DNA of 64,000 nt from Candidatus Bathyarchaeota archaeon (GTDB taxonomy: Archaea; Thermoproteota; Bathyarchaeia; Bathyarchaeales; Bathycorpusculaceae), in contig CAVZIW010000006.1 of assembly GCA_963775465.1 (NCBI GenBank), forward strand, positions 252,755 to 316,754, given 5' to 3'. Positions 2,135 through 14,246 of this stretch are shown here, one piece after another (position 1 is the first letter of the stretch; the number at the start of each line of letters is the position of its first letter). The notes below the pieces were generated by a model. That model made no database searches. It was not told where the DNA came from and saw nothing but the letters and a program-made list of their open reading frames with translations. Made by a program: the position numbers and the translations under genes.

Positions 2135-2860
2135 TTATGAATATTTTTCTAGCAATTCTTTTACTGCTTTTAGCAACTCTGCGGGGTTATCCTTTAGCTG
2201 TTCGCTTAATCTGAAATGCGCTGGTTCCATCACTTCCGGTCGAACGACGCGTATTTTGTCTCTAATGGTGCTTATCCGAGAAGCAAGGGTCAATTCAGGA
2301 TATATTTCATCAATGACAGCAATAAGAACAGATTCTTCAGGTTGCAGGACCACTTGCGGATCAAACCAGTGAGCGGGCTCCATGACTTCGGGTCTTACGG
2401 CTATCGATGCACCGTGGGATGCAGTAGTTAATACTGGAGCAGTAAGGATTGGTTTTTTGAAGTGGGCGGGTTCCATCCAATCCGTCTTAAGTTTAAGTCT
2501 TAGTGCATCAAACCAAATTGCGTATAGACAGTATTTGCCTACAGAAGCTTTGATAGTGGTTTCTTTAATCTTGGAAAGCGCATTTTTTAGTTCACTTTCA
2601 AAGAGGGTTCCTCTAAGGTTATCGCCACCTATGATGAGGTTCGCGACATTTCCTTTTTCACCGATTTCAACTACAATTGGAATTGTTGTCGTAACAACAA
2701 AACCAATTTTTCTTGAAACGCTATCGAAAGCATTATCGATCGCCTTTTGATATTTTTCCTTAATGACTCGATATATTGCAAGCAGATCTTCGTAATGTTT
2801 TATGATTCCAGGGTGTGCGGGTTCCATCCAATCGCGCAGTCGAAGGTTTTTCTCAGTCAA
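2135..2860 (-). CDS. MEPAH-repeat protein; putative substrate or precursor of the adjacent B12-radical SAM enzyme
   Basis: Four MEPAH copies (DWMEPAHP, DWMEPAHF, EVMEPAHW, EVMEPAHF). TTG start lies 4 nt after the rSAM stop, with a GAGGTGA SD overlapping that stop. Confidence 0.8.
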   Translation of the reverse strand: MTEKNLRLRDWMEPAHPGIIKHYEDLLAIYRVIKEKYQKAIDNAFDSVSRKIGFVVTTTIPIVVEIGEKGNVANLIIGGDNLRGTLFESELKNALSKIKETTIKASVGKYCLYAIWFDALRLKLKTDWMEPAHFKKPILTAPVLTTASHGASIAVRPEVMEPAHWFDPQVVLQPEESVLIAVIDEIYPELTLASRISTIRDKIRVVRPEVMEPAHFRLSEQLKDNPAELLKAVKELLEKYS

Positions 2861-2864
2861 TTTT

Positions 2865-4619
2865 TCACCTCCTTTGTTCTTCTTCTAGTTTCTTTTTGAA
2901 GAAGTTATAGGGAATCACATCTGGAGAAAGACCAATAAAATCAAGTACACTGGCCTGAGGACCAAGTGCCTGATTTTGAAAGCTGTTTTTCATGTGATTG
3001 AATGATTGTTGTCCAGAGTTTTCTAAAATTGCATGAGCATAAATCGAGGGGACAGTTTTTTCCAGGTTATTCTTGTTTTTGTATGCCTCTTCGATCCAAT
3101 CGATTATGGTTTGCCCTTGTAACCGTAGAATGCTACTTCTCATATCAATTTGCGCCCGCGTTTCTTGCGTAAAGTTGGCAATAGTTGCTTCGTCATGTTT
3201 TCCTTTAGATACGAAATCGTAGATTGTGCTTAGCCAGTGGTATGTATCGAGATTGGTTTGTTTTATAAAATTCTTAACTTCGCTGCGTAAGGTTTCAGAA
3301 AGTAAGTCGGGGTAGAAACGTCTTAGAAGTTGGAAGTAGAAATCCACTTGCATGTTGAAGTAATGCAACCCATAGTCGCTGAAATTGCGGTCAAAGAAGG
3401 CGTAGTTTGCTATCTGATGGAATAATTCGCATTTTGGGTCCGTTAAGCGATAGTCGAAGCCGAAATAACTTCCTAAAAGGCGGTTTTCAGCTTTTAGTTT
3501 GGCTTCTAAGCCGGTGCCTGCATAGGCTTCTGCACGGCAAAAGTTAAATGGGTTATCAAGGTGTCTTTCCATGAATCGGATATTTAGCAAAATGTCTTCC
3601 ATTGAGGCGTCGGGTTCAAACATCAAGAAGTTGTAGGCTACATGGATGTCAAAGTCGTTGAGTACCGTAAGGGCATTGAGTGTCTGCTCGATCGTTTGTA
3701 TGCGATTTAAGTTTTTTAGGCCATTTGCTGAGGCATTTTCCACTCCTAAGAAGACTCTGAATAGTCCTAATTCGTCAAGTATTTTGATGGATTCGCGGTT
3801 TATGCTTTCAGGTCTAGCTTTGATGGCAATAGCGATTCCTTCTATTTTCTCTTGCTTTAACTGATCACGCAAAAGTCTGAAACGTTTAACTGTTTGTTGC
3901 TGGTTGGGAAGGAAGAAATTGTCGTCTTGAAAATTAAAAATTCGAATGCCATGCTCAAAATAGAGTTGCTTCATCTCTGCAACTATGTTGTCGACGCTAC
4001 GATAACGGAACTTCTTACCTCCACCTTGTTCATACCAAGCGTTGATGCTGCAAAAGGCGCAGTTTCGCCAGCAACCACGGCTGCTTAGAATGCTGCTGAT
4101 TTTTTTTCCAAAGTATTCGTGGAAATGCTCTCGTTTGGGGAAAGGTAAAGAATCCAAGTCCTCCTTATTGCTGCTGGCTGGATTACAAGTAATTTTGCCG
4201 TCTGTGTTTCGGTAGCATAAAGCTGAGACAAGAGAGAGGTGGTTGAGGTTTTTTGCAAGTGAAACCATTAGGTCTTCGCCTTCACCTAGTGCAACTGAGT
4301 TTATGGATGGATATTCGATGAGTAGCTGTTCGCTGTTGAAAGATGCAAAATGTCCTCCAGCAACTATATGCCCCTTATAACCTGCATCTCGAAGGCCTTG
4401 TGCTATGTTGAGAAACTCCCTGGCACGGCTGGTAAATACCATGGATAAACCTACAATTTGAGGATTAAAGTTGAGGATGTCTTGAATTACTTTTGGCTGG
4501 TCGTAGTTTGAGTTGAAGGGAATTATTTGGGCGTGTTGCTTTTTAGCTTCAAGTGAGGAGGCTATGTAGCGTAGCCCCAGATTTTCTTCTAGTTCGGCTC
4601 CTACAAGTGCTATTTTCAT
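2865..4619 (-). CDS. Cobalamin (B12)-binding radical SAM enzyme
   Basis: N-terminal B12-binding Rossmann domain (LGLRYIASSL, VGLS, AGGHFAS, GEGE), SRGCWRNCAFC (CxxxCxxC), FQDDNF, LGVEN. Likely start is the ATG at 4619 (MKIALVG), preceded by GGAG. Confidence 0.92.
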   Translation of the reverse strand: MKIALVGAELEENLGLRYIASSLEAKKQHAQIIPFNSNYDQPKVIQDILNFNPQIVGLSMVFTSRAREFLNIAQGLRDAGYKGHIVAGGHFASFNSEQLLIEYPSINSVALGEGEDLMVSLAKNLNHLSLVSALCYRNTDGKITCNPASSNKEDLDSLPFPKREHFHEYFGKKISSILSSRGCWRNCAFCSINAWYEQGGGKKFRYRSVDNIVAEMKQLYFEHGIRIFNFQDDNFFLPNQQQTVKRFRLLRDQLKQEKIEGIAIAIKARPESINRESIKILDELGLFRVFLGVENASANGLKNLNRIQTIEQTLNALTVLNDFDIHVAYNFLMFEPDASMEDILLNIRFMERHLDNPFNFCRAEAYAGTGLEAKLKAENRLLGSYFGFDYRLTDPKCELFHQIANYAFFDRNFSDYGLHYFNMQVDFYFQLLRRFYPDLLSETLRSEVKNFIKQTNLDTYHWLSTIYDFVSKGKHDEATIANFTQETRAQIDMRSSILRLQGQTIIDWIEEAYKNKNNLEKTVPSIYAHAILENSGQQSFNHMKNSFQNQALGPQASVLDFIGLSPDVIPYNFFKKKLEEEQRR

Positions 4620-5017
4620 TTTCTTAACTCCCATAAATTCGAAAGCAGGTATCTGCCTTCTACTGACATATTTCTTGCTTCTCAAAGTTTAATGCAAGAT
4701 ATAGGTAACTTCAACTCACGAATCATATTTAATAATATGTGACTGTAAGGAGACTATGACAGAATTATGTTAGCATCACACAACCCCTACTCTCTCCGTT
4801 GAAATCAGCTTTTGATTAATGCTTCATCAAAAAAATGAATAAGTGATAAGGCGTATTTTTTCACTCATTAATTATTTGTTTTGGAAGACCAACTTAAGCA
4901 GACAATCAAAGCAAAAGTCTCAGTTAAGTAAACGAAAAAACTGTAGGTTCAAAAGTAGAAATAGGAATGGAGGATAAACCTCTCACGTTTACATTTTGAG
5001 TGGCTATTAAGTGGCTA

Positions 5018-7015
5018 TTAAGGTGTTAAGGCGAAGGCTATTGTGCGTGAAGCATCGTACTGGCTTTGACGTGAAATTCCGTTGATTGCTCGCGCAGCTA
5101 CGTACAGCTGAACTGCAAACGCAGCGCTTGGGCATATTCCCAGCAGGTTGGCAACGGTTTCTTTGTAGATGAAAGGGGCAAGTGAGACTGACCCTGAAGT
5201 GCTGGAGATGACGTTTGGTCCTTTGATGATTCCGAAGGAGTAGTTAGCCATGAGAGTTGGATGAGAAGCAACATAGAATATATGGACAAAATCGGTTTTA
5301 TTGTTGAATTTAAGCATTCCACATTGGTTCGCGGCTACACCTGCTACTGTTGGCATGTCAATTGAAGCAATACATTTGTTGTTGTCGACTAGAACTTTTA
5401 GAGATTGAGTATGCAAGACAACGCCAGCTGCGTTAGTAAAGTCAATTTTTAATGTGTGCAAGCCATTAGTTAAAGATGAACTATCTAATATCATGCCTAG
5501 GTCAGTGTTCATGAAAAAGTCACCCAGCTGATGGATAGCAAAATACCCCGATTGAGCATTTATAATGTTAGGAACAAAATGAATTGGAATTTCATATTTG
5601 CCATTAATGGTGTTGAGCTTTAGGTCCCACCAAGTATCAAATCGCAAGGCACCATCCACAAACACTCGATAGTAACGCACCCCACTCTGCCAAGATAATA
5701 GTTGATTGATTTGCAGTGACAGAACTCCGCCGAATGGGACATTCTTGGCGAATTGGTATGGGTACAATGGCTGAGTTGTTGTGTCAACTTTCCCTGCGGC
5801 GGTAACCAGATTCCATGGAATCAGCCCTATTCCTTTGAACAGCCCTGAAGTGACGAATCCGCCTAGAATATTGATAAGGTCAATTTCCTGATCAGAGCAC
5901 ACCAATATACGCATAGCATCAATGCAGGCGACGCTTGACGGGCGGACTCCTACGCTGTCGGTCAGATGCCGAACACTACCGGGGTGAGGAACAGTATCCA
6001 CTAAAGTTATGTGGTTTGCAGGATCACGTTCAGGCAAGATAATCGTAGTTTGAGCAGAATCAAGCCATGTGAGGAAAAACGGATTAGTCAATCCTGAAGC
6101 AATTGCCATTGGAACTCCACCTTGTAGTGAATACCTTGTTATGCGTCCGCCACCTGACTGCTCGCTTATGTAAGCATAGGCGAGATCCGAAGATACCAAC
6201 AATCCAACCGCATTGTTCAAACTGTTTATAAGAACGGTTTTTTGTAGAGTATTCAAGTCTACTCTTATGAGTCGACCTGGATTTGCGTATTCAACAACGT
6301 AAGCTTGATGATGATTCTCATCAAGGAATATTTGCTGAGGTGCCAGAAACCCTGAGGTTAGCACGACAGCTGCCGATCGGTTGGCATTTGTAAGGTTCAC
6401 TTTGAGCAAGTTTCCTGTTCGTTCTGTTACGTAGGCGGTCTTCTCGTCGCTGCTAACCGCGATGTCTTCTGGGTTAGTATAACCTGTTCCAATTATGTGA
6501 TAAGGACTTGCAAGTTTGTAGGTAACCCACTCAATTGTCATATCGTATCCATATTGAGCAACCCGGATTTTTGCGACGTTTCCATCTTTTGTCTGAACTG
6601 CAAAAACGTCGTTGTTTACAAGCTGATTTGAAGCGTCATTGTTGCCGATGATTGAAGTATTACCGTATGTTAAGGCTTGAAGTGCAACAGGGGTCAAAGC
6701 GGCAAAATCAATGTTTCCTAAATTCATTATACTAGCTCCGCCTGCCGGAACCATTTGTCTCTTTATACTATCAATCTGTTCCCACCAAATATCTCCAGGA
6801 CCATTCAAGTTCCCGCTTAATGTCCCTGTCTCACAGTCAAACACCCATGTTCCTTTAAGCACGGTTGTTCCTGAAGACAAAACTGAGCTAGAACGAATCA
6901 AATCCAAGAAACTAATAGTACCTTTAGAATATTCCACAAAAACTAGTTGATTCCGTTTAGAAAGAAAACGGCACCCAATAGCGGCACCTACTCCACCTAA
7001 TAATTTAGTTGTCAA
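5018..7015 (-). CDS. Beta-propeller (NHL/YncE-like) protein with an inserted domain and a C-terminal beta-rich domain; no signal peptide
   Basis: Repeated blade motifs GYTNPEDIAV, GFLAPQQIFL, SLNNAVGLLV, GLTNPFFLTW, GVRPSSVAC. Confidence 0.7.
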   Translation of the reverse strand: MTTKLLGGVGAAIGCRFLSKRNQLVFVEYSKGTISFLDLIRSSSVLSSGTTVLKGTWVFDCETGTLSGNLNGPGDIWWEQIDSIKRQMVPAGGASIMNLGNIDFAALTPVALQALTYGNTSIIGNNDASNQLVNNDVFAVQTKDGNVAKIRVAQYGYDMTIEWVTYKLASPYHIIGTGYTNPEDIAVSSDEKTAYVTERTGNLLKVNLTNANRSAAVVLTSGFLAPQQIFLDENHHQAYVVEYANPGRLIRVDLNTLQKTVLINSLNNAVGLLVSSDLAYAYISEQSGGGRITRYSLQGGVPMAIASGLTNPFFLTWLDSAQTTIILPERDPANHITLVDTVPHPGSVRHLTDSVGVRPSSVACIDAMRILVCSDQEIDLINILGGFVTSGLFKGIGLIPWNLVTAAGKVDTTTQPLYPYQFAKNVPFGGVLSLQINQLLSWQSGVRYYRVFVDGALRFDTWWDLKLNTINGKYEIPIHFVPNIINAQSGYFAIHQLGDFFMNTDLGMILDSSSLTNGLHTLKIDFTNAAGVVLHTQSLKVLVDNNKCIASIDMPTVAGVAANQCGMLKFNNKTDFVHIFYVASHPTLMANYSFGIIKGPNVISSTSGSVSLAPFIYKETVANLLGICPSAAFAVQLYVAARAINGISRQSQYDASRTIAFALTP

Positions 7016-7824: not shown

Positions 7825-8382
7825 GAACTCCATCTAAAAACAATTCACAGCCTAAATTTCTAGTTTGCCGCAGGTATTTCATATAGTTTAATATCAAATT
7901 GTTAGCTTAAAAGTGGACGGAGTTCGTCGTTTAACCAGGCAAAAACAGATTGTATTTGAGGAAAGAACGGCGATCTTTCTAACGTGAGGACTAAACGGCG
8001 AAATCCGCATCACAAAATAAAGTTCAATCAATCCTTTAAACAGTTGTTGGCACTAGCACACAGCAACAAAAAGTGATGGCTTTTCTTGCAAACAAACTTG
8101 ATATTTTCATTGAAGCTATTTTCTAATTGTTGCTTATCCTTGAGGATTTTCAAAGAAAAAATATGATAACAGGCAAACCAATCGAAAACTGCATTTGTCA
8201 TAACTGAAATTGCTTTAAGAACCTTTGGGAAAACTTTTAATAATTTGAGGGTTTTGGAAGTCATGGTGGTTTCTTTTCCGCTTTCTAACTTTAGCAACAA
8301 GCAACTTAAGAAAAATCATGGTTCTCTTTTGAATGCAAAGGCGACAATTGAGCATAAACATCGAGAAAGGTCTGATCAATTA

Positions 8383-9729
8383 ATGTTTTCTCCGTTCGTT
8401 TACATATTTAACATAAATGACGATACGAAGTGTCTTTTCCATTCTTTGACGTTAAAGAAAGCATACCTAAAAAATGATGAATATATCACTGTATTAACTG
8501 ATATGGCTACGGATAACCTTACCGAATCTGTAAAGAGCTTACTTAATCTCGAATTTATTGTACCCCAAAGCTTTGATCAAGAGAGAGTTTTTTGCACATT
8601 GGCAGATAAAATGCTTAGAAAGACGCCATCTCCATTTCTATCCTACGTTTTAGTAACGGATTACTGCAACTTTAGATGCGGCTATTGCTTCATAGAGCAC
8701 TCTCTTAAAGGACCGAGCGTAAAAATGTCTAAGGAGGTAGCCGACAAAGTCATAAATGCTCTTATTACAACAGCAAAAGAAGTTAAAGAATACAAAGTTA
8801 CATTTTACGGAGGTGAACCTCTTAGTAATAGCGAAATCATCTTTTATATAATCGAAAAGCTTGAGAGGGAAGTCAAGAATAAGTTTACCTTTTCATGCGT
8901 AACGAATGGAAGCTTTGTAACAAAGGAATTAGCGAAAAAACTTAAAGAAAACAATGTTAGCGTTGGTTTATCTCTTGATGGTTGGCATGGAATTAATAGG
9001 AATCGTGTTTTTACTGAAGGAATCGAAACCTTCAATTCTACACTCCGAGCGCTAACTCTCTTGAATGAAGCTAGCGTAAATGTGGGAATATCCTGCACGA
9101 TTACCAAGCAGAACTACGAATATGCGGAGGAAATAGTCGATTTCTTTCACAAATTGGGAATTAAGAGTTTAGGTTTTAACTTGCTCACCAGAATCAAGGA
9201 CTCTACTCAATTCGAAGTGCCAGATCCAAAACAACTTGCTCATCATCTCTTTAAGGCGTACTTAAAAGCAAAAGAATTGCATATGTTTGAAGATCGGATA
9301 GACAAGCGAAGGGCGAGATATTTCTTTAGAGAAATTTTCCACGTATATGATTGCCCGGCATTTGGTCAGCAAATATTCTTTTCTCCATCCGGAACAGTTG
9401 GACCTTGCCAAGCCTTCTACCCGTCGGGAAAATATCAAATTCCAATTAAAGATGATTTAAAAGTTCAAGAAGAACCTCTTTTTTATAAATGGTTTGAATT
9501 GGGGACTCTAAAGAACAAAGAATGTATGAATTGCCCTGCGCTTGGAATATGCGGTGGTGCATGCACATATGATGTCTATATTAAAACTGGTCAATTAGGC
9601 ATAAAAGAAGACTATTTCTGTGCGTTTCAAAATGAAATTTTGAAATTGTTATTGGCGTATGATTTTCTAACAAAATCACAAAATAGTTCCAAAAGAAAGA
9701 ATCGGAAGCGAATACAACGCAAACTCTAA
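8383..9729 (+). CDS. Radical SAM / SPASM-domain peptide or protein maturase
   Basis: CNFRCGYC, FYGGEPL, VTNGS, SLDG. C-terminal SPASM cysteines CPAFG...GPC and CMNCPALGICGGAC...YFC. Likely start is the ATG at 8383 (ORF track starts at 8245). Confidence 0.92.
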   Translation: MFSPFVYIFNINDDTKCLFHSLTLKKAYLKNDEYITVLTDMATDNLTESVKSLLNLEFIVPQSFDQERVFCTLADKMLRKTPSPFLSYVLVTDYCNFRCGYCFIEHSLKGPSVKMSKEVADKVINALITTAKEVKEYKVTFYGGEPLSNSEIIFYIIEKLEREVKNKFTFSCVTNGSFVTKELAKKLKENNVSVGLSLDGWHGINRNRVFTEGIETFNSTLRALTLLNEASVNVGISCTITKQNYEYAEEIVDFFHKLGIKSLGFNLLTRIKDSTQFEVPDPKQLAHHLFKAYLKAKELHMFEDRIDKRRARYFFREIFHVYDCPAFGQQIFFSPSGTVGPCQAFYPSGKYQIPIKDDLKVQEEPLFYKWFELGTLKNKECMNCPALGICGGACTYDVYIKTGQLGIKEDYFCAFQNEILKLLLAYDFLTKSQNSSKRKNRKRIQRKL

Positions 9730-9918: not shown

Positions 9919-10500
9919 TTGGCAAAAGTTAAAAAAGCTCCTAAAGCAAAATTAAAAAGACCAGCTGTTTCTCGTTCAACAAAAAAATCGGTCTCAAAAG
10001 TTTCTGCTAAAAAACTCACTGAAGCGCAAAGTAAACGTTTTCGGGTGCTTCTTTCGAGGAGTCCGTCAATTGAAAAGATTGATCCTCAAATGTATGCAAA
10101 ACTGCAATCAGCCATACATGAAGCCGTTGAAAAAACGATGCCAGAATATGTGGAATGGTTAAATCAAGCTTTCGGCGAGACTATTGTAGCAGAAGATTGC
10201 CCTCAACCAGCATGTTGGTCGTGTGGTACAGGTCCTGAACCGGCGTGTTGGTCGTGTGGTACAGGTCCCACTCCAGTTTGTGATAAGTGTGATAATGGTG
10301 ACTTTACTTCGTCAATTGATAAGATCGCAAACAAGGTTTCTAAAGCGGTTATCAATGCTGCCATGAGTGCCGCGATAGGTCTTACTTTAGCTGATGCTGT
10401 TGCAAAAGAGAGTGGAATAATAGTTAGCGAGGTCCAAATGCGCAATATAGTTAAGAAACAACTCAAAGAAGTAGCCAATGAAATAGGAAAAGGCGCATAG
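9919..10500 (+). CDS. Cys-rich repeat protein; putative SPASM-rSAM substrate
   Basis: Lys-rich N-terminal tail and central DCPQ-PACWSCGTGPE-PACWSCGTGPT-PVCDKCDNG. Directly downstream of the SPASM gene on the same strand. Confidence 0.75.
   Translation: MAKVKKAPKAKLKRPAVSRSTKKSVSKVSAKKLTEAQSKRFRVLLSRSPSIEKIDPQMYAKLQSAIHEAVEKTMPEYVEWLNQAFGETIVAEDCPQPACWSCGTGPEPACWSCGTGPTPVCDKCDNGDFTSSIDKIANKVSKAVINAAMSAAIGLTLADAVAKESGIIVSEVQMRNIVKKQLKEVANEIGKGA
10207..10299 (+). repeat. 33-nt-period coding tandem repeat (two near-identical units plus one diverged unit)
   Basis: tgttggtcgtgtggtacaggtcc occurs identically at 10213 and 10246. The third unit, ccagtttgtgataagtgtgataatggt, keeps PxCxxCxxG. Confidence 0.9.
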
Positions 10501-11227: not shown

Positions 11228-12388
11228 TCATTCAGTCGCTGCTGATCCGCCTTGCCATTGAGATATACGAAATATAACAAACTCAGCCGGCTTCACCGGA
11301 GCAACACCGATCAACATTATTAATCTTCCATTATCTATATCATCTTGCGTCATTGTGTTGCGATCGCATTTCACGAAGAAAGCTTGTTCCGGAGTTGTTC
11401 CCATCAGAGCGCCGCCTTTCCATACAGTTGTCAAAAATTGTGATGCAGCCTGCTTTACCCTTGCCCAAAGTCTCTCATTATTAGGTTCAAAAACAACCCA
11501 TTGGGTTCCCTCTTCAATCGATTCCTCAAGGTACAAAAACAAACGCCGAAGGTTGATGTATTTCCAAACGGGGTCATTTGAAGTTGTTCGAGCGCCCCAC
11601 ACACGGAAACCTCGACCACTAAATTCTCGCAAACAGTTTACCCCAAGAGGATTTAGCATTTCTTGTTGCGCTCGGGAGATTTGCTGTTCTGGACCGAGAA
11701 CCCCTTCTATGACTTCATTGACTGGCGCTTTGTGAACCCCGCGTTGCAAGTCGGCTCGTGCATAGATCCCGCATATGTGTCCGCTGGGCGGGATACACAA
11801 AATTTCTTCTGTATCAGGATGTCGGATTTTTATCCAGGGATAATATAGTGCAGCATACGATGAGTTGTACAAAGACCGCTGCTTCCGAATCACGTCCAGA
11901 TTCGCACATTTTTTTGAGTCAAGCACGGCAAAGCGATTCTTCAGGTTTTCACAATGCTCAATCATAGCATTATGAATTTTCTGGGTTGTTCCATTGGGAA
12001 TTGCTAAGATTTTGATTTCGTCGATTCCATTAAACGCCCAAAGCCCAGTTCTCTGACTTGGTTCTCTGGAGTCTTTGCCTATAATAGTTTCATCGATAAC
12101 CACGCCTTCTGTAGCTGAAACACGATTTATGTAGACTCTGTGACCACCGTTCTGAAAAAAGCCTTCGACAGCATGAGGCAGATAACGGTAATCACCATAA
12201 CTTGTGTCCAAATAACCACCGAATAACCTTTGAAATTCGGAGAAGCTCGTAACAAGTGTGGGTTGGTTGAGCGGCCCTTTCTGAGTTAAACCCACCATGC
12301 CTGTTGTACTGGTGCTCACGCCTTCGATAGGTTTTGCACCTATTTCTACTTCTTCAATGTAAACTTTGGGTGATAAATATTCTGGAAT
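11228..12388 (-). CDS. Contractile tail sheath protein (eCIS Afp2/3/4-like)
   Basis: (I/M)PEYLSPKVYIEE N-terminus, AALYYPW, PPSGH..G..AR.D..RGVHKAP, VWGART, WVVFEPN, GVAPVKPAEFVIFRI. The conserved N-terminus starts at an ATT at 12388. Confidence 0.92.
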   Translation of the reverse strand: MPEYLSPKVYIEEVEIGAKPIEGVSTSTTGMVGLTQKGPLNQPTLVTSFSEFQRLFGGYLDTSYGDYRYLPHAVEGFFQNGGHRVYINRVSATEGVVIDETIIGKDSREPSQRTGLWAFNGIDEIKILAIPNGTTQKIHNAMIEHCENLKNRFAVLDSKKCANLDVIRKQRSLYNSSYAALYYPWIKIRHPDTEEILCIPPSGHICGIYARADLQRGVHKAPVNEVIEGVLGPEQQISRAQQEMLNPLGVNCLREFSGRGFRVWGARTTSNDPVWKYINLRRLFLYLEESIEEGTQWVVFEPNNERLWARVKQAASQFLTTVWKGGALMGTTPEQAFFVKCDRNTMTQDDIDNGRLIMLIGVAPVKPAEFVIFRISQWQGGSAATE

Positions 12389-12542
12389 TGGCTATTCCTC
12401 TGGTTATTGCTATGTGAGTTTTTTCTTATAAAATGTGGCTTAAATTTAAGTGGGCGCTTTAGATTCTGTCCCGATTTCTTAGACTGTATTAATCGATAAT
12501 GATAAATGTTAAACTAATCATTAAAGACTGGGAGCTGATTTA

Positions 12543-13055
12543 ATGCCGGAGTTTAGTGTTAATGCAACTCGTTTTGATCCATACAAGAATTTTAAATTCA
12601 GAATTAAGTGGGATGGCAAATATGTCGCTGGTTTGAGCAAAATGTCAGCTTTAAAACGAACCACTGAGGTAGTTAAACATCGATCAGGTGGAGATCCAAG
12701 TTCAAGCAGAAAGTCTCCAGGTCGAACTGAATATGAGGCAATCAGGTTAGAACGTGGAGTCACTCATGATTTGGAGTTTGAAAACTGGGCTAACAAGGTA
12801 TGGAACTTTGGTGCTGTATTGGGCGGTGAAGTTTCCCTTAAGGATTTTCGCAAGGACATAATAATTGAAATCTATAATGAAGCAGGACAAATGGCAATAG
12901 CTTACAAAATTTATCGTTGTTGGGTTTCAGAATACCAAGCACTGCCAGAGTTAGATGCTAACTCAAACGCTATTGCTATTCAGAGTATAAAGTTGGAAAA
13001 TGAGGGTTGGGAAAGAGACACCGATGTCACTGAGCCAACTGAGCCTTCAATTTAG
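12543..13055 (+). CDS. Phage tail tube protein (T4 gp19-like, eCIS Afp1/5-like)
   Basis: RFDPYKNFKFRIKWDG, SPGRTEYEAIRLERGVT, RKDIIIEIYNEAG, CWVSEY..LPELDA. Confidence 0.92.
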   Translation: MPEFSVNATRFDPYKNFKFRIKWDGKYVAGLSKMSALKRTTEVVKHRSGGDPSSSRKSPGRTEYEAIRLERGVTHDLEFENWANKVWNFGAVLGGEVSLKDFRKDIIIEIYNEAGQMAIAYKIYRCWVSEYQALPELDANSNAIAIQSIKLENEGWERDTDVTEPTEPSI

Positions 13056-13091
13056 CCTTCAATTTTCCTGTTAATTCTGGAGAATACCCTC

Positions 13092-14246
13092 TTGGCTCCA
13101 CTAATTTCAAGCCGATCCAAAACTGTTAAAGGAGCGTTAGTTTTAGTCAGATCTGCTTCAAAGTCTTCTGTTAGCGATCTTGATCCTCTTAGCTTTATTT
13201 TTCAATACAATCCTGAGATGCTTACTCACACGTTTTCCTCTTCAGACTGCGAAGAAGTAGAAAGGCAGGAAAAAGGGCAGAGTGCTGCAAGCAAAATCGT
13301 TGAATTAATAAACTTGAACTTAGAACTCGATGCAACCGATCCGCTTATACAACCAAATCTGCACCAAGAAATTGTTGAATACGGCCTTCATCCAAGCCTT
13401 GCCATTCTGGAATCAATCCTGCTCTCTCAAAACTCCACATCATCTATCGTTCTCTTTACGTGGGGTCCCAATCGGTCAATTCCTGTTTCAGTAGAAAACA
13501 TGAGAATTTTAGAGGAGGTTTTTGATACCAAGTTAAACCCAATTCGGGTAAAGATTGAACTTGCTATGAGAGTACTTGATATCTCGAAATTTAGAAAAGG
13601 TTCAAAGGGTTACACTCTTTGTCTACTTCACTCAGATCGAAGAAATTTCTTCATAAAAAAACGTGTCGACAGAAGTCCACTCAATGTGTCATTTGCGACA
13701 AAAATTGTTCCTCAACATAGCTGGAAAGATTTAGTTATGCCTATTGATAAGAAAGAACAAATACGCAAAATATGCAATTACGCAAAGAATAACCCTAAAA
13801 CTTTTGAAACTTGGGGCTTTGATAAACATTCTCGACGAAAGGGGTTCAACATTCTGTTTTTAAATCCATCTGAGTCTGGAAAAACTATGGTTGCTGAAGT
13901 CATCGCCAGTGAAATTAAACTTGATTTGTTCAAGATTGATCTTTCGAGGGTTGTCAGTAAGTATATTGGGGAGACAGAGAAGAATCTGAATAGAATTTTT
14001 AAAGATGCAGAAGATTCTGATGCGGTTCTGTTTTTCGACGAAGCAGATGCTTTATTTGGGAAAAGAAGTGAAGTAAAAGATGCCCATGACAGGTACTCCA
14101 ATATTGAAGTCAACTATTTGCTACAGAAAATAGAAGAACACCCAGGAATCGTTATTCTCGCCACTAATACCAGCGGGAAAGTTGAGGAAGCATTCGTGAG
14201 ACGGATGAATTTCATTGTAGAGTTTCCATCTCCAAATGGAAATTAA
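13092..14246 (+). CDS. Fusion of an eCIS tube-initiator-like (Afp7-like) domain and a truncated Afp15-like AAA+ ATPase; possibly degenerate
   Basis: N-half FQYNPE...ELDATD...LFTWG...EEVFD..LNPIR. C-half IDLSRVVSKYIGETEKNL, LFFDEADALFGKRSEVKDAHDRY. Walker A reads NPSESGKT and the ORF stops before the lid subdomain. Confidence 0.75.
   Translation: MAPLISSRSKTVKGALVLVRSASKSSVSDLDPLSFIFQYNPEMLTHTFSSSDCEEVERQEKGQSAASKIVELINLNLELDATDPLIQPNLHQEIVEYGLHPSLAILESILLSQNSTSSIVLFTWGPNRSIPVSVENMRILEEVFDTKLNPIRVKIELAMRVLDISKFRKGSKGYTLCLLHSDRRNFFIKKRVDRSPLNVSFATKIVPQHSWKDLVMPIDKKEQIRKICNYAKNNPKTFETWGFDKHSRRKGFNILFLNPSESGKTMVAEVIASEIKLDLFKIDLSRVVSKYIGETEKNLNRIFKDAEDSDAVLFFDEADALFGKRSEVKDAHDRYSNIEVNYLLQKIEEHPGIVILATNTSGKVEEAFVRRMNFIVEFPSPNGN

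Follow-up and report, generated by a model that had tools for sequence, protein, structure and literature searches.

What is the substrate of a radical S-adenosylmethionine (SAM) enzyme that depends on cobalamin and whose gene is followed almost immediately by that of a small protein repeating one pentapeptide four times? The question is raised by a 64,000-nt stretch of DNA (the window) from a Candidatus Bathyarchaeota archaeon (GenBank assembly GCA_963775465.1, contig CAVZIW010000006.1, positions 252,755 to 316,754), the minus strand of which carries a 606-codon open frame (4685-2865), then 4 nt, and then a 241-codon frame (2860-2135), a pair of only 2.5 kb. Enzymes of this kind perform some of the hardest reactions in biology and, to our knowledge, few of their protein or peptide substrates have been recognized. 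We propose, with somewhat better than even confidence, that the enzyme post-translationally modifies the Glu-Pro-Ala-His (EPAH) motifs of the intracellular protein encoded next door, hereafter the partner.

The two genes are linked in both directions

Among 51 loci from GTDB species genomes chosen by the partner, 47 hold an ortholog of the enzyme (53-84% identity), which lies directly upstream on the same strand in 46 cases and directly downstream in one, an ANME-2 locus (L033:166-3042) where the order is reversed, with the enzyme located 3' of a partner that carries 7 motifs and both on the same strand. The enzyme-chosen loci, the best 80 of 328 confirmed stretches of metagenome contigs with orthologs 57-85% identical, have the partner directly downstream in 74 cases, a count from a set that was not de-duplicated and in which some pairs, L068/L069 and L081/L082 among them, appear to be one sequence recorded twice; the other 6 loci leave less than 300 nt of room, and none lacked the partner where room existed. 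The preliminary description of this DNA had asked whether orthologs of the enzyme usually have an EPAH neighbor, and the answer is that, among these 80 loci, the neighbor was never missing where it could have been seen.

The four partner-chosen loci without a linked enzyme fit a dependence of the partner on the enzyme, as two of the four have broken partner genes. At one of these (L021:1802-2530), a TGA occupies the position of the invariant Trp that follows motif 3, and at the other (L047:6004-6570), the first ~46 codons of the partner are missing; the enzyme was not found in either genome, which is no proof of loss because both genomes are incomplete. At the third (L052), the partner is at the edge of its contig, and a different contig of the same genome carries the enzyme at one of its ends (L133); at the fourth (L028), likewise in an incomplete genome, the partner is intact and no enzyme was seen, the contig ending 248 nt away. 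The partner remnant at L047 adjoins a large same-strand open reading frame (ORF; 3433-4995).

No third gene accompanies the pair. When 2229 ORFs from 52 regions (the 51 loci and the window's own region) were clustered, only the two genes, together with overlapping alternative-frame ORFs, were common to more than 6 regions. The ORFs closest to the pair on either side at 42 loci, 84 of the 167 selected neighbor ORFs, contained no Pfam family in more than three cases, the most frequent being Peptidase_S9, PD40, Radical_SAM and DPPIV_N with three each, and neither the clustered regions nor the flanking ORFs revealed a conserved protease, exporter or further tailoring enzyme beside the pair. Judged by its gene content, the pair can be described as a self-contained two-gene cassette.

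The cassette occurs in at least 10 phyla of Bacteria and Archaea. According to the labels of the database records, its archaeal carriers are Bathyarchaeota, Methanoperedens, ANME-2 and other Methanosarcinales, and its bacterial carriers are Acidobacteriota, Geobacter, other Desulfobacterota, Brocadia, Phycisphaerales, Anaerolinea, Verrucomicrobiia, Chlorobium, Pedobacter, Nitrospinae and Actinomycetota; one carrier is a cultured strain, Geobacter hydrogenophilus DSM 13691 (locus L040), whose partner has 265 aa and 5 motifs. Near the window's genome the distribution is patchy: among 60 relatives, the cassette was seen in 1 of 36 congeneric genomes and in none of 24 from other genera of the order. 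The window's copy resembles that of Sulfotelmatobacter (57% identity for the partner, 65% for the enzyme) more closely than those of Methanoperedens (41-51% and 59-61%, respectively). This closer match, combined with the patchy distribution, fits horizontal spread of the cassette as a two-gene unit. A phage or plasmid vehicle is unsupported because searches of viral contigs (14 pattern matches, none confirmed) and of 72,556 plasmid records turned up no copy. The patchy spread across domains suggests that, in anoxic soils and sediments, the cassette serves an accessory function open to selection.

A conserved motif lies in the linkers of the partner

The preliminary description had reported four copies of MEPAH in the partner, two as DWMEPAH and two as VRPEVMEPAH, encoded with differing synonymous codons. 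The copies (at residues 12, 129, 160 and 211) and their DNA positions match the sequence exactly, and the contexts and the codon differences among the four EPAH copies are as quoted. Only 1 of 100,000 residue shuffles of the partner contained any pentapeptide four times. Across the whole 2.4-Mb genome, EP[AV]H is confined to 5 of the 5174 open frames that reach 80 aa, namely, the partner with its four copies and four other frames with one copy each, none of them in the [WV]-x context; an EPAH-type motif was found in none of 120 orthologs of the enzyme.

In an alignment of 68 sequences 44-90% identical to the window's partner, the Glu, Pro and His of motifs 1-3 are invariant, as is the Glu of motif 4, where Pro and His reach at least 90% conservation. 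No variation is seen at W128, W165 or F166 either, and W11 is at least 90% conserved. Motif conservation among homologs was one of the points at which the preliminary description had declared itself open to refutation, and the motif is kept. Over 130 family proteins, the consensus is [W/V]-x-E-P-[A/V]-H-[F/P/W], with W at 51% and V at 44% in the first position and A at 88% and V at 10% before the His. No conserved cleavage site flanks all motif types in these proteins.

Copy number varies widely among the same 130 proteins: 3 copies in 5 proteins, 4 in 85, 5 in 21, 6 in 8, 7 in 1, 8 in 2, 10 in 3, 11 in 3, 12 in 1 and 13 in 1. Extra copies arise by two routes, either as tandem arrays after motif 2 that are rich in His, Trp and Pro, or as C-terminal repeats of a module consisting of the motif and an amphipathic helix, motif 4 being the unit that is multiplied in longer homologs. 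The ten proteins from a search for longer homologs (P0241-P0250; 425-533 aa) have 8-13 motifs, many of them E-P-V-H, and also contain repeated modules of motif, proline-rich segment and helix. In a Methanosarcinales genome with such a long form (L051:5980-7371), the enzyme still lies directly upstream. The idea that the long forms are fusions to the enzyme or to another domain was rejected, as the 7 of the 10 that were inspected are motif expansions with no fusion. Two single clusters join other sequences to parts of the family, a membrane-protein N-terminus to the C-terminal half in P0337 and a receiver-like N-terminus to the last ~65 residues in P0392, and both may be chimeric calls.

The AlphaFold model of the partner, built on the 68-row alignment (predicted local distance difference test (pLDDT) 75; predicted template modeling (TM) score 0.64), is confident for residues 17-127, 162-205 and 226-240, with ten-residue block means of 84-97 over residues 21-120. 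Values fall below 50 at residues 1-13, 128-160 and 209-219, where motifs 1, 2 and 4 are located, with motif 3 at the edge of the second of these segments. The domains between the motifs are themselves strongly conserved. No signal peptide was seen in the N-terminus when it was judged by eye, without a predictor.

Relatives of the partner number 438 at E ≤ 0.01 among 1125 scored candidates, and a profile search of 1.84 billion cluster representatives returned 181 clusters at E ≤ 0.001, many of them fragments, with no more distant family beyond the partner's own. By these searches, the partner family appears to be compact and unnamed. The preliminary description had recognized no described family for this protein, and this holds for the sources covered: the partner matched nothing in NCBIfam or PADLOC and nothing above cut-off in Pfam, with no NHLP or Nif11 leader, and searches of full-text literature for 'EPAH' with 'radical SAM' and for the motif strings found only unrelated papers, the searches not extending to supplementary files, journals behind subscription or curated web resources on radical SAM enzymes. 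Within these databases and this literature, the system looks undescribed. DUF1128/UPF0435 (YfkK), a name that some sources give to homologs, was rejected, scoring 20 bits against a Pfam gathering threshold of 27, over 28 residues.

The partner profile gave just two chance-level matches among PDB sequences (E 0.43 and 0.67). The preliminary description had seen a loose resemblance to a TonB C-terminal unit in one segment. TolA and TonB C-terminal domains are indeed the top Foldseek matches of the model, but at E 0.13-0.5 and target-normalized TM-scores of 0.34-0.48, with no match at E ≤ 0.001; the protein Atlas places the partner in a 'TonB C-terminal' cluster with a score of 0.90 but just 81 of 256 features in common; and Pfam TonB_C does not match, residues ~53-127 having been considered. 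We treat the likeness as a lead only.

The enzyme is predicted to be a class B radical SAM protein outside the curated families

That the upstream gene encodes a cobalamin-binding radical SAM protein with the sequence CWRNCAFC, as the preliminary description had stated, is confirmed by two Pfam domains above cut-off (Table 1). The CxxxCxxC cluster motif occupies 4073-4050, and its three Cys residues are invariant in 24 orthologs. The AlphaFold model (pLDDT 77.7) resembles the solved folds of OxsB (Foldseek E 4.9e-19), TsrM (1.8e-17), MgmA (1.2e-16), CysS (1.6e-14) and TokK (1.8e-13). Domains, cluster motif and modeled fold together point to the class B (cobalamin-dependent) group. Between the helical C-terminal domain (residues 395-514), a possible substrate-binding region, and the conserved C-terminal tail lies a variable linker (residues 527-578) with pLDDT below 50.

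The enzyme falls under the cut-off of every curated NCBIfam family, and its partial matches make it a member of none: HpnR 93.1 bits (cut-off 650), BchE 90.6 (481.35), HpnJ 83.8 (577.6), the C-methyltransferase model TIGR03975 for peptides that are made on ribosomes and then modified post-translationally (RiPPs) 83.9 (281.85), and the model TIGR04014 for the glutamine C-methyltransferase of methyl-coenzyme M reductase (MCR) 54.9 (360). PADLOC returned a single generic radical SAM match (PDC-M51A, E 7e-12), from which we read no defense role.

A proposed modification of the EPAH motifs and its alternatives

In the mechanism that we favor, the class B enzyme would act on the [W/V]-x-E-P-[A/V]-H repeats in the protein encoded directly downstream, where they would lie in flexible linkers between conserved folded domains. 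Docking through the partner's folded domains, or through the helical C-terminal domain and tail of the enzyme, would let the exposed motifs thread one by one into the active site. Linkage of the genes in both directions, decay of orphan partners, invariance of the motif with a constrained -2 position, its placement in linkers, its varying copy number and its absence elsewhere in the genome are together what would be expected were the motif the substrate. The analysis shows the linkage, the invariance, the varying copy number, the linker placement, the class B fold and a presence in RNA libraries; that the motif is the substrate, which of its residues is targeted, by what chemistry and to what end are inferred. 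The chemistry is judged from the enzyme family only. Among class B enzymes C-methylation is the commonest reaction, and, by analogy, methyl transfer to an unactivated carbon within the motif or adjacent to it would be the most likely outcome, with a cross-link or another radical rearrangement as the alternative; the residue affected could be the Glu, Pro, Ala/Val or His of the motif or the variable position preceding Glu. Most probably the product remains an uncleaved protein inside the cell and is not a cleaved, exported peptide, an outcome favored because there is no conserved protease or exporter and because the folded segments are strongly conserved. Of the two options in the preliminary description, an intact protein and a multi-core RiPP precursor, the former is the likelier, the latter being disfavored by the missing protease and exporter and by the conserved domains outside the motifs.

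Several observations weigh against this proposal. The lipid and tetrapyrrole models (HpnR, BchE) score about level with the RiPP C-methyltransferase model, and OxsB, the best solved relative, is not a methylase; because the partial matches mix lipid, tetrapyrrole and RiPP models and the best solved relative does not methylate, the class of substrate cannot be read from the enzyme. Conservation of the partner's domains would be no less compatible with an activity of its own or with the role of a stable subunit than with that of a substrate, and the long forms rich in His, Trp and Pro could bind metal with no modification. Two observations in favor of the proposal each carry a caveat. Pairwise identities of the two proteins correlate across 46 loci (Mantel r 0.82, with none of 999 permutations attaining it), as would be expected of any two co-inherited genes. 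Four metatranscriptome runs from salt marsh gave assembled contigs that map to the locus with a likeness of at least 99%; one of them (2127-2890) spans the complete partner gene plus 26 nt at the end of the enzyme gene, and others cover parts of the enzyme gene. None bridges the gene junction by a 31-letter rule, given the 26 nt in the enzyme; RNA libraries can hold DNA, and such contigs yield neither level nor strand. The contig-free stretches in the four runs (1900-2100, 2910-3110 and 4728-4900) carry no weight for or against transcription.

Modeling of the complex, which the preliminary description had suggested, gave a similarly guarded result. The enzyme-partner prediction scored 0.38 against 0.00 for the best of three controls and so passed the mark, but in a score range of low reliability: 58 of 80 solved complexes reach the mark, as do 2 of 110 mismatched pairs, and at scores of 0.60 or below the passing cases comprise 7 of the 80 solved complexes and both of the passing mismatches, so that, unless the pairing was already probable, a pass at 0.38 misleads more often than not. 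Agreement among the runs extends to at least 27% of contacts, with a partner pLDDT of at least 61. Overall, the prediction lends weak support to binding.

Some of these observations would suit an EPAH protein that serves as a stable subunit, scaffold or activator, its motifs docking or regulating while the real substrate is a small molecule, lipid or tetrapyrrole, which we regard as rather unlikely. HpnR, BchE, HpnJ and OxsB all act on small molecules, and they provide, respectively, the best partial profiles of the enzyme (93, 91 and 84 bits) and its best solved relative; the strongly conserved folded domains and the weakly passing complex (0.38 against 0.00 in the control) would agree with such a role. 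Yet the enzyme is far below the cut-offs of all small-molecule families, no conserved biosynthetic neighbor hints at a small-molecule pathway, and neither the 3-13 copies of one short linear motif nor their position in disordered linkers would be expected of a fixed subunit. The motifs might instead be unmodified metal- or corrinoid-binding sites, formed by Glu and His with the neighboring Trp, in a protein that stores metal or cobalamin or delivers it to the enzyme. This would account for the gene linkage, because the partner would supply metal or cobalamin to a B12/Fe-S enzyme, and is in line with the invariant His and Glu, with the His/Trp/Pro-rich arrays of long forms bearing 8-13 EP[AV]H copies, and with the need for cobalamin and an Fe-S cluster that the enzyme's family implies. 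Still, we give it only a slim chance: we know of no other class B radical SAM enzyme that needs a dedicated repeat protein, the strict Pro and the aromatic or aliphatic residue at -2 appear to exceed what simple metal-binding repeats usually show, and the partner profile has no relative in the PDB.

A multi-core RiPP precursor, from which housekeeping proteases would free the motif peptides as a metallophore, signal or cofactor precursor, also seems quite improbable. A core-like motif repeated in variable number beside the gene of a modifying enzyme is what such a precursor would look like, the generic RiPP hallmark of a precursor gene next to its modifying enzyme is present (74/80 and 47/51 loci), and 3 of the 84 nearest-neighbor ORFs belong to the prolyl oligopeptidase family. 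On the other hand, the companion hallmark of a conserved leader protease or exporter is absent, and no second tailoring enzyme is conserved nearby either; no signal peptide was visible by eye and no common cleavage site occurs at all motif types; and the segments between the motifs are the most conserved and most confidently folded parts of the protein, unlike disposable spacers.

Returning to modification of an intact partner, we can envisage a more far-reaching form of it, one that we think unlikely though not implausible. Each E-P-A-H site would become a C-methylated or cross-linked Glu/Pro/His center within an uncleaved, non-exported protein, giving a tunable array of 3-13 metal-binding or redox sites encoded by two genes that would move as a unit between anaerobic archaea and bacteria. 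Such an array, if real, would amount to a cofactor system derived from a protein, of a kind not described before, and not to another RiPP methylation. More generally, comparative genomics alone here yields an enzyme together with a probable substrate and the precise site of four residues within it; a post-translational modification new to science could emerge from the pair, and the varying copy number would provide a natural dose series.

Layout of the locus and its surroundings

Coordinates of the cassette, its parts and a group of nearby phage-tail-like genes are collected in Table 1. The 4-nt gap that the preliminary description had placed between the enzyme's stop codon and the start of the partner gene is present in the sequence, with an AGGAGG directly abutting that stop codon. 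We take the ATG at 4619, and not the upstream TTG at 4685, as the start of the enzyme because homologs begin there, and the TTG at 2860 as the start of the partner because homologs keep the N-terminus M-x-E-x-x-x-R-x-R-D-W. The database gene call for the window's partner (P0001, 230 aa) starts at the internal ATG of the first MEPAH and drops 2828-2860, thereby omitting the conserved N-terminus, including the Trp before motif 1. The GC content of the cassette (0.39-0.41) is like that of its surroundings, and a scan for promoters and terminators scored no better than shuffled sequences.

Table 1. Positions of the cassette, its domains and motifs, and nearby phage-tail-like genes in the window.
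Feature	Position	Strand	Remarks
Enzyme (B12-binding radical SAM), 584 aa from ATG 4619	2865..4619	-	TGA stop 2867-2865; frame open back to TTG 4685
N-terminal B12-binding (Rossmann-like) domain	4257..4586	-	Pfam PF02310, 57.4 bits against cut-off 32.1; residues 34-143 of the 606-aa ORF
Radical SAM core	3591..4085	-	Pfam PF04055, 68.3 bits against cut-off 29.5
All-helical C-terminal domain, residues 395-514 of 584	3078..3437	-	Helices from model; many invariant alignment columns
Conserved C-terminal tail (P-Y..F-K helix)	2868..2912	-	P570 and F574 invariant; Y571 at least 90% conserved
Junction between genes	2861..2873	-	AGGAGG 2873-2868, enzyme TGA stop 2867-2865, 4-nt spacer AAAA, then partner TTG start (2860)
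Partner (EPAH-repeat protein), 241 aa, TTG start	2135..2860	-	Open frame; homolog N-termini
Motif 1 MEPAH, residues 12-16, DW context	2813..2827	-	E13, P14, A15 and H16 invariant (68 sequences)
Folded N-terminal domain, residues 17-127	2480..2812	-	Long helix, then beta-beta-alpha-alpha-beta-alpha unit
Motif 2 MEPAH, residues 129-133, DW context	2462..2476	-	W128, E130, P131 and H133 invariant
Motif 3 MEPAH, residues 160-164, VRPEV context	2369..2383	-	E161, P162, H164, W165 and F166 invariant; W-F directly after motif
Helical domain, residues 162-205	2246..2377	-	Helices 162-166, 174-186 and 192-205; I180, D184, Y187 and L192 invariant
Motif 4 MEPAH, residues 211-215, VRPEV context	2216..2230	-	E212 invariant; P213 and H215 at least 90% conserved
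C-terminal amphipathic helix, residues 226-240	2141..2185	-	From model; repeated together with motif in longer homologs
Tail sheath	11228-12319	-	Side observation
T4 gp19-type tail tube	12543-13055	+	Side observation
AAA ATPase	13092-14246	+	Side observation

Just upstream of the cassette, a 665-aa ORF (5018-7015, minus strand) matches no family above cut-off, with weak strictosidine-synthase and HmuY-like stretches only, and ORF clustering indicates that it is not kept beside the cassette at other loci. A second radical SAM system, unrelated to the cassette, begins with a radical SAM/SPASM peptide maturase (8245-9729, plus strand), the best model for which is of the FibroRumin type at 179 bits (cut-off 400), with PapB at 142 bits (cut-off 340). 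It is followed after 190 nt by a 193-aa ORF without a family (9919-10500, plus strand) that has a tandem Cys repeat, in which a C-W-S-C-G-T-G-P unit occurs twice before another Cys pair, and the two form a candidate RiPP pair. The phage-tail-like genes at 11228-14246, with no obvious prophage around them, may be part of a contractile injection system.

Comparison with known systems

Mmp10 is a B12 radical SAM methyltransferase that modifies MCR. MgmA/QCMT (PDB 9ccb) is reported to be the glutamine C-methyltransferase of MCR (PMC13469106). Like the enzyme in our proposal, both are cobalamin-dependent radical SAM proteins working on a residue of a full-size protein and not on a leader-bearing peptide, and MgmA is a near solved fold (Foldseek E 1.2e-16) as well as a detectable sequence relative (E 4.3e-7). 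In contrast, hosts of the cassette include non-methanogens (Acidobacteriota, Geobacter, Brocadia and others), and the presumed EPAH substrate is a dedicated neighbor with repeats, whereas the site modified in MCR is single and belongs to an enzyme encoded elsewhere.

PoyB and PoyC are C-methyltransferases of proteusin-type RiPPs, the type that model TIGR03975 represents. The clavusporin system is reported to introduce multiple C-methylations at unactivated carbons (PMC10849626). On these accounts, both resemble the cassette in combining a B12 radical SAM enzyme with several modifications on one ribosomal product encoded nearby. Unlike proteusin precursors, the EPAH partner has no NHLP or Nif11 leader and comprises 240 aa with folded domains between the motifs, and, unlike either system, the EPAH pair has no conserved protease, exporter or added tailoring gene.

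A parallel outside the radical SAM enzymes is provided by HvfA and HvfBC ('oxazolin'), where a multinuclear non-heme iron oxidase (MNIO) system modifies three repeats of an 11-residue Cys motif, HvfA carries a signal peptide, and the product binds Cu(I) (PMC11252979). Bufferins are likewise described as MNIO-modified proteins with Cys motifs (PMC12452194). The likeness lies in a dedicated enzyme beside a short-repeat protein in which every repeat is modified, the metal-binding product being a feature of the known systems. The differences are that an MNIO is not a radical SAM/B12 enzyme and that, compared with the Cys motif and signal peptide described for HvfA, the EPAH motif contains no Cys and the partner has no visible signal peptide.

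OxsB (PDB 5ul2-5ul4), the best solved relative of the enzyme (sequence E 4.9e-14, fold E 4.9e-19, query-normalized TM-score 0.58), shares its architecture of B12 domain, radical SAM barrel and helical C-terminal region. OxsB acts on a nucleoside in oxetanocin biosynthesis. It is only 16-18% identical to the enzyme and has no EPAH-type partner. By its domains, cluster motif and modeled fold the enzyme is assigned to the class B radical SAM group, yet to none of its curated families, and what distinguishes the cassette from these systems is the EPAH motif, a 240-aa partner with the motifs between folded domains, and a minimal two-gene architecture.

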